Virus record (IMG/VR): IMGVR_UViG_2778261395_000001
DNA length: 15,435 nucleotides
Source of the DNA: a virus
Lineage: Duplodnaviria; Heunggongvirae; Uroviricota; Caudoviricetes
Direction: 5' to 3' (one strand)
Of the stretch, positions 14,365 to 15,435 are shown piece by piece (position 1 is the first letter of the stretch; each line of letters begins with the position of its first letter). The position numbers and the translations under genes were made by a program. The notes below the pieces were generated by a model that saw only the letters and a program-made list of their open reading frames with translations, was not told the DNA's origin and made no database searches.

Positions 14365-15435
14365 ATGGAAGTCAACAAAAAGCAGCTGGCTGACATTTTC
14401 GGTGCGAGTATCCGTACCATTCAGAACTGGCAGGAACAGGGAATGCCCGTTCTGCGAGGCGGTGGCAAGGGTAATGAGGTGCTTTATGACTCTGCCGCCG
14501 TTATAAGATGGTATGCCGAAAGGGATGCTGAAATTGAGAACGAAAAGCTGCGCCGGGAAGTTGAAGAACTGCGGCAGGCCAGCGAGACAGATCTCCAGCC
14601 AGGGACTATTGAGTACGAACGCCATCGACTTACGCGTGCGCAGGCCGACGCACAGGAGCTGAAAAATGCCAGAGACTCCGCTGAAGTGGTGGAAACCGCA
14701 TTCTGTACTTTCGTGCTGTCGCGGATCGCAGGTGAAATTGCCAGTATTCTCGACGGGATCCCCCTGTCGGTGCAGCGGCGTTTTCCGGAACTGGAAAACC
14801 GACATGTTGATTTCCTGAAACGGGATATCATCAAAGCCATGAACAAAGCAGCCGCGCTGGATGAACTGATGCCGACGTTGCGCCAGCGCCTGTTCCGCTG
14901 CGTGAGTATCCGTGAGAACGACGACGGCACGTATGCCATCACCGCCGTGCAGCATGTACCGGAAAAAGAGGCCATCGTGGATAACGGGGCGCACTTTGAC
15001 GGCGACCAGAGCGGCACGGTAAATGGTGTCACGCCGCCAGCGGTGCAGCACCTGACCGCAGAAGTCACCGCAGACAGCGGGGAATACCAGGTGCTGGCCC
15101 GCTGGGACACGCCGAAGGTGGTGAAGGGCGTGAGCTTCCTGCTTCGCCTGACCGTGGCAGCGGATGACGGCCGTGAGCGACTGGTCAGCACGGCCCGGAC
15201 GACGGAAACCACTTACCGCTTCACACAACTGGCTCTGGGGAACTACAGGCTGACAGTCCGGGCAGTAAATGCGTGGGGGCAGCAGGGCGAGCCGGCGTCG
15301 GTATCGTTCCGGATTGCCGCACCGGCAGCGCCGTCGCAGATTGAGCTGACACCGGGGTATTTTCAGATAACCGCCACGCCGCATCTTGCGGTTTATGATC
15401 CGACGGTACAGTTTGAGTTCTGGTTCTCGGAAAAG
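14365..15435 (+). CDS. nohD: Terminase small subunit Nu1 homolog, continuing in frame (from about 14871) into lambda J-like tail host-specificity sequence; runs off the window end
   Basis: [73 protein letters not shown]... matches lambda Nu1; after ...AALDEL it switches to ...[33 protein letters not shown]...[59 protein letters not shown], which matches the central region of lambda J. Confidence 0.85.

Follow-up and report, generated by a model that had tools for sequence, protein, structure and literature searches.

An in-frame Nu1::J fusion in the DLP12 remnant of Escherichia coli is a deletion scar at a recurrent Nu1 breakpoint

Is the long open reading frame that closes this prophage segment a new gene or a scar of prophage decay? 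The window, by which we mean the whole stretch of DNA analyzed here (15,435 nt), ends in one uninterrupted frame, and the original prediction held that this frame starts as a near-lambda Nu1 of about 168 codons and switches in frame at 14870/14871 to the middle of J. Alignment to lambda (NC_001416) bears out this description. Window positions 14176–14881 correspond by blastn to lambda 1–707 (cos and Nu1; 97.5% nucleotide identity) and positions 14870–15435 to lambda 17192–17757 (J from codon 563; 94.5% identity), with the Nu1 side ending and the J side starting at the predicted join. Translation of 14365–15435 from its ATG gives 357 codons with no stop, and the phase is equal on both sides (position 2 of Nu1 codon 169 and of J codon 563), so the join is in frame, with no stop or frameshift between the two parts. 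The break lies between T14870 and G14871 and makes codon 169 a hybrid ATG; at this point the lambda sequence GATGAACTGAT-ACCGGGG gives way to GATGAACTGAT-GCCGACG, exactly as the original prediction states. Relative to lambda, the net loss is nt 697–17191, which takes in the 3' end of Nu1, gene A, every head gene, and the tail genes as far as the middle of J, as had been proposed. The features around the join are these:

14176–14187, plus strand: cosN cohesive-end sequence GGGCGGCGACCT, from reading of the sequence and from blastn (lambda nt 1 aligns with 14176)
after cosN and up to the Nu1 start, plus strand: cosB region, from the alignment of window 14176–14881 with lambda 1–707
14365–14870, plus strand: Nu1 (small terminase subunit) part, codons 1–168 and two bases of codon 169
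14870–14882, plus strand: junction, in which both parents have T14870 and J-only sequence starts at G14871
14871–15435, plus strand: J (tip attachment protein) part, lambda 17193–17757, J codons about 563–751
14365–15435, plus strand: chimeric ORF as seen in the window (complete product, 765 aa)

The J part runs beyond the end of the window to the J stop codon, and the full ORF is found in near-identical genomes (L001 16266–18563), where its product is named a "phage tail tip domain-containing protein" in RefSeq (WP_447311201.1). In Pfam searches the product matches Phage_Nu1 (PF07471) at 1–164 of 164 (E 2.9e-100), followed by Ig_J, Ig_J_second, Phage_Tail_Tip, and Ig_GpJ_C; the J-side models PF24421, PF24489, PF09327, and PF12421 are matched over their full length, covering the Ig-like/FN3, tail-tip fibre, and receptor-binding regions. 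Both Ig-like domains are present in the J part, and the tail-tip fibre and receptor-binding domain lie past the end of the window. Matches to known structures cover the Nu1 side at 1–68 (1J9I) and 1–98 (6HN7) and the J side at residues 562–835 and the J C-terminus (8IYK, 9WCA, 8XCJ). Compared with lambda Nu1 and J (PDB 8IYK and related entries), residues 1–168 are Nu1 and residues 170–765 are J 564–1132.

The Nu1 part retains the N-terminal winged-helix DNA-binding domain and the self-association region. The gpA-binding C-terminal tail of Nu1 comprises about its last 40 residues, as defined by lambda terminase genetics, and this tail is lost, the sequence departing from Nu1 at codon 169 of 181 with J in place of the last 12 residues. 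A cos site is present upstream, but gene A is missing and the Nu1 part runs straight into J sequence. On the J side the match begins at 562/563, and the N-terminal hub (residues 1 to about 562) is missing. Lacking the gpA-binding tail, the neighboring gene A, and the J hub (residues 1–562), the chimera has the defining functional context of neither the Nu1 nor the J family, and the established roles of those parts suggest that it would serve as neither a terminase nor a tail tip. A 372-aa antisense ORF (14266–15384, minus strand) spans the junction and the whole window part of the chimera; it has no convincing Pfam or family match, was treated as spurious, and is probably a by-product of sense-strand codon bias.

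The position and gene order of the prophage identify it, on sequence, as DLP12, a cryptic lambdoid prophage integrated at argU, in the form found in the E. coli B/C/Crooks lineage. An Rfam search over the whole window returned the tRNA-Arg gene argU (674–747) and no other match, and intD adjoins it. The annotation of the near-identical locus L001 gives the order known from DLP12 of K-12, emrE-ybcK-ybcL-ybcM-ybcN-ninE-ybcO-rusA-ylcG-quuD-porin-essD-rrrD-rzpD-bor/iss-ylcI-noh followed by appY-ompT, and the order at the locus is argU-intD...quuD-porin-essD-rrrD-rzpD-iss-ylcI-cos-Nu1::J-stf...appY-ompT. The flanking features, taken from the list of open reading frames and the L001 annotation, are as follows:

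766–1929: intD, adjoining argU
9668–13097, plus strand: upstream late-operon context, quuD to rzpD
ends at 10066, plus strand: quuD (Q homologue), from the L001 annotation
11882–12142, plus strand: essD
12142–12639, plus strand: rrrD
from 12636, plus strand: rzpD, frameshifted at 12847

The frameshift in rzpD (Rz homologue) is a 1-nt deletion at window 12847, private to the window strain, that diverts the frame at about codon 71 into the embedded rzoD (Rz1) frame. Window 78–15435 differs from E. coli PCP07083 by three mismatches and one gap. Window 1–77 is the end of an IS1 copy adjoining a truncated fimZ (78–494); the position and orientation of IS1 near fimZ differ between the window and PCP07083, and fimZ is intact in HCM-26C-1, which makes the source of the window a third strain within this lineage.

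The window allele has a far commoner relative. Pieces of Nu1 and J lie near each other in 130 complete E. coli genomes, in almost all of which they are spaced by 1,054 bp (REL606, ATCC 8739) or 183 bp (BL21). This older junction, carried by REL606, BL21, C, ATCC 8739, and others, joins Nu1 699 to J 16142 at a 7-bp TGATACC repeat, out of frame, and leaves a 191-aa Nu1 variant and a J pseudogene. The DLP12 remnants of REL606 (ECB_00511, Nu1-like, and ECB_00512, J-like), C, and ATCC 8739 share with the window the prophage, the site, the flanking genes, a Nu1 breakpoint within 3 nt, the J remnant, and the tail-fibre genes; unlike the window, in which J starts at lambda 17192, they retain a further 1,054 bp of J (starting at lambda 16142). 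The window allele equals the older allele minus L002 6772–7825, that is 1,054 bp (1 mod 3), and its flanks are 99.9–100% identical to those of the older allele. Searching 5,426 complete genomes with a junction-specific 50-mer recovered the older junction in 65 and the window junction in 2, and exact matches to the two proteins on contigs number 844 and 6, respectively. The fusion is thus correctly described and is an ordinary deletion scar, a rare in-frame allele of a known remnant, and probably secondary to the older junction allele.

The order of events bears on the part of the original prediction that probably does not hold, namely that a single deletion removed everything from the 3' end of Nu1 to mid-J. 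SNPs were called across some 30 kb of the prophage and its chromosomal flanks, with K-12 as the root. On this tree ATCC 8739 lies outside a clade that comprises the window type, REL606 and C, and the strains Ec-RL2-1X, G5, and 3908; all strains but ATCC 8739 have the derived states at L001 13479 and 30706. REL606 and C have in common four derived SNPs that are absent from the window type, and PCP07083 and HCM-26C-1 have one derived SNP of their own. Since the older junction thus occurs on both sides of the window lineage, a nested second deletion is the parsimonious history; the rooting consists of two solid SNPs and could be misled by recombination between lineages. In the sequence history that we judge likely, the window allele would descend from the older one. 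A first deletion of about 15.4 kb between the 7-bp TGATACC repeats would have produced the out-of-frame Nu1 699 :: J 16142 allele of REL606, C, and ATCC 8739, and in one sub-lineage a second, illegitimate deletion of 1,054 bp would have taken out the old junction together with the first part of the J remnant, which would have put J back in the Nu1 frame because 1,054 is 1 mod 3. Both deletions would have used one short stretch of Nu1 (GAACTGAT/A/CC, lambda 696–700).

The junction itself has the character of an illegitimate deletion through short homology. The parents L002 and L004 are colinear with the window and carry the extra 1,054 bp, lambda is colinear with an extra 16.5 kb, the homology at the junction is 1 nt exact or 9/12 imperfect, and mobile-element ends are absent. 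Such deletions in E. coli and lambda likewise share 1–10 nt, lack IS or att sites, and keep direct orientation. Repeats around the 1,054-bp deletion were limited to a 9-nt inverted repeat near its ends (L002 6776–6784 and 7777–7785), which is about the number expected by chance in 1.4 kb and does not bracket the right end.

The strongest competing history is a single deletion of about 16.5 kb from Nu1 696 to J 17192, independent of the B-type deletion, or a variant of it in which a B-type background used the intact Nu1 copy of a second lambdoid phage, anchored on the left by homology. The junction sequence speaks for this history, in that TGCCGACGTTGC at the junction is an imperfect copy (9/12) of the intact Nu1 sequence TACCGGGGTTGC. 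Aligned at the breakpoint, the J partner GCCGACGTTGCG matches intact Nu1 697–708 (ACCGGGGTTGCT) at 8/12 positions, a level reached by the top 0.5% of 2,821 positions (background frequency 0.5%), whereas against the older junction the second deletion has 1 nt of exact microhomology and 3/12 matches to its right; this is the pattern that a deletion from an intact Nu1 gives. Other alleles broken at the same site have similar imperfect repeats with intact Nu1 (L253, 9/12; L109, 6/12), and since the site is a hotspot, two independent deletions with one left end are not improbable. Against it, the flanks hardly differ from those of B-type strains and the window lineage is nested among them in the K-12-rooted SNPs; a single step would then require an intact prophage to have survived across two nodes and the B junction to have originated or spread repeatedly. 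A relative with the intact region and these flanks was not seen. We therefore regard a single step as unlikely and retain the two-step history.

We consider the recurrence of the Nu1 breakpoint a more interesting result than the fusion; the breakpoint is common to many unrelated prophage remnants. The hint came from an alignment of Nu1 variants in one protein cluster, which pointed to a common point of divergence, and was then tested at the DNA level by exhaustive scans for non-lambda continuations. These scans recovered at least 14 distinct junction alleles from unrelated prophages whose left ends lie at lambda 696–700 (Nu1 codons 169–170; window 14866–14875), at loci L017, L055, L073, L095, L109, L119, L249, L252, L253, L254, L257, L260, L261, and L275; protein tails yield further alleles, including one with J at about 17231, and the total of distinct alleles is probably about 18. 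The window junction falls within this stretch. Partner sites in lambda are at 2245 and 2488 (gene A), 8064 (Z), 15018 (I), 15805, 16142, 16487, 17192, 17305, and 17970 (J), and about 19340, and several further partners are non-lambda tail-fibre sequences. In IMG/VR, 107 of the 116 loci with lambda 680–696 continue as lambda, and deletion junctions cluster at 697–703. A scan anchored on the Nu1 start, and thus not conditioned on the site, found six distinct breaks within 697–703 and seven at 237–623, an excess of about 60-fold per nucleotide over the rest of Nu1. Divergence does not set in exactly at codon 169 in all Nu1 variants, as the protein alignment had suggested: some of them proved to be P170S or P170T substitutions with junctions slightly further on.

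What these junctions have in common at the partner site is 1–10 nt of similarity to (GA)TACC(GGGG). One end that stays fixed within 5 nt in many independent events is not what simple slippage among random short repeats predicts, and site-specific recombination fits poorly, since (GA)TACC-like microhomology is all that the partner sites share. A quasi-site for Hin/Gin/Pin or a secondary att site for lambda Int was rejected because the crossovers are spread over 696–700, the partners have no common dyad, and the site forms no hairpin; folding of the hotspot DNA from lambda, the B allele, and the window gave z-scores of about 0. A cosN-like half site (ACC-GGGG against ACG-GGGC) was also set aside, its other half being unmatched. 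An octamer just left of the hotspot, GCTGGATG (lambda 682–689), matches Chi at 6/8 positions, and a role for it is speculation. Matches listed for the 17-mer GCGCTGGATGAACTGAT in 596 Gb of genome contigs come almost all from unrelated taxa, apparently by chance; only four of these listed loci have a Nu1-like left flank, and none was used. We found no described Nu1 deletion hotspot in the searchable literature. Tentatively, and at odds that we put somewhat below even, we suggest that lambda-type Nu1 contains a previously undescribed, sequence-determined deletion hotspot at codons 169–170 (GAACTGAT/A/CC followed by GGGG; lambda nt 696–700), where a defined break or replication stall leaves a stable left end that is joined, by microhomology of 1–10 nt, to partner sites anywhere from gene A through the tail-fibre genes. 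If this is true, the hotspot would account for a sizeable share of the losses of morphogenesis genes in lambdoid prophages, would explain the many E. coli remnants that have cos and Nu1 and lack the gpA-binding tail, and would explain why the second deletion of the window re-used the old junction. A specific break or stall would also offer a tractable model of how prophages become defective and a practical marker for classifying lambdoid remnants. A 130-nt stretch of J contains the ends of four different Nu1::J junctions, at 17176, 17192, 17231, and 17305 (L058, P0003, L109/L113/L251; window 14856–14985), and J 17176–17305 has two patches resembling the 3' end of Nu1, GTTGCTGA..ATA and TGCCGACGTTGC.

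Other remnants place the window allele among related scars. In K-12, nohD-aaaD-tfaD of DLP12 and nohA-stfQ of Qin resemble the window in having kept cos and Nu1, lost the morphogenesis genes, and been joined to tail-fibre genes; unlike the window, DLP12 joins lambda 1018 to 22119 and Qin nohA joins 719/720 to stf, and neither join is in frame with a large partner or lies in the hotspot at 696–700. The IMG/VR contig 2563366948_000001 (L252) has an in-frame Nu1::J fusion with its Nu1 break at 697/698, in the same breakpoint stretch, and the C-terminal part of J; its J breakpoint is at lambda 17970, about 780 nt further on, and its prophage background is different, and the two fusions are independent. 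The J remnant of the B type is itself still decaying through additional independent deletions. BL21 has a separate 871-bp deletion within it (L003 6940/6941, BL21(DE3), against L004, REL606), and in Ec-RL2-1X, G5, and 3908 the 3' end of J has been deleted into the tail-fibre gene stf (L330–L332 19548–19576). An IS1 is also present between ylcI and cos in Ec-RL2-1X.

Could the chimera nonetheless have been selected? The original prediction noted that, with the frame preserved, a chimeric Nu1-J protein could be made if the region is transcribed. A special significance of the preserved frame is not supported: of 14 comparable junctions, about 3 keep the frame (the window, the L252 Nu1::J, and a Nu1::I fusion in L275), which is not above the chance expectation of one in three, and the 765-aa ORF most likely arose by chance as a by-product of deletion. 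A scan of 11300–15435 for promoters and terminators gave no excess over shuffled sequence and no convincing promoter for the chimera; by analogy with the organization of the lambda late operon, read-through from the late promoter of the QuuD-dependent operon would be the only obvious way to transcribe it. One functional scenario is that the protein acts as a decoy on cosB of incoming lambda-like phages, binding there with no recruitment of gpA, or as a soluble receptor-binding fragment of J that blocks LamB or OmpC. In its favor are a frame intact over 765 codons with all Pfam domains at full length, a Nu1 part invariant up to L168 in a protein alignment of many remnants, the position of the ORF directly after cos in the late operon, and the existence of the second, independent in-frame fusion in L252. 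These points are outweighed by the rarity of the allele in complete genomes (2/5,426) and on contigs (6), by a far commoner parent allele that is out of frame, by an in-frame share that does not exceed chance, by the lack of a promoter in our scan, and by the decay of the strain's own late operon (the rzpD frameshift), and we consider a selected function very improbable. We infer that the chimera is non-functional, although its perfectly conserved Nu1 sequence may leave room for DNA-binding activity. Taken as a whole, the best explanation is a scar of DLP12 decay with a two-step history and an inert by-product as its ORF, to which we give a probability of roughly 0.7. An artefact of assembly or sequencing at the junction, for instance a collapse between similar sequences, has nothing specific to recommend it beyond the imperfect 12-nt similarity of the parents and has a negligible likelihood, since the junction occurs in the window strain and in two independent complete assemblies from different countries (PCP07083 and HCM-26C-1) that carry a common lineage-specific SNP, and the three strains have private mutations and different locations of IS1 and IS1203, which makes the junction real and inherited.

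By itself the fusion matters little: it is a further allele of a familiar cryptic prophage that is decaying step by step. The only documented activity of this type of remnant is passive, as a donor in recombination. In REL606, the J remnant ECB_00512 is a homologous-recombination donor to infecting lambda, and recombination of lambda J (1545–2796) with ECB_00512 doubled phage fitness (bioRxiv 10.1101/2020.11.02.365361); exchange between lambda and DLP12 in the region of cos and nu1 also takes place readily, and DLP12 nu1 is functional in lambda (PMC3945230). Because the J remnant is a proven reservoir of host-range sequence for infecting lambda, the part of J that survives affects what a phage can acquire; the J sequence retained by the window allele starts at nt 1688 and covers the greater part of what was exchanged in the ECB_00512 study. 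Within 14176–14340, cosN is also intact and the sequence of the cosB region is near that of lambda, and a helper terminase of the lambda type might in principle cleave the chromosome here.

Elsewhere in the window, a truncated DNA adenine methyltransferase gene (minus strand) adjoins a truncated replication gene P (plus strand) at about 3430, within about 3063–3675; this boundary is another rearrangement scar, through which the genes for immunity and early replication were probably lost. The porin gene of DLP12, nmpC (10256–11338, minus strand; annotated as ompC-like; 360 aa), is intact in the window, whereas an IS5 copy interrupts it in K-12 and an IS1 copy does so in REL606 and BL21.
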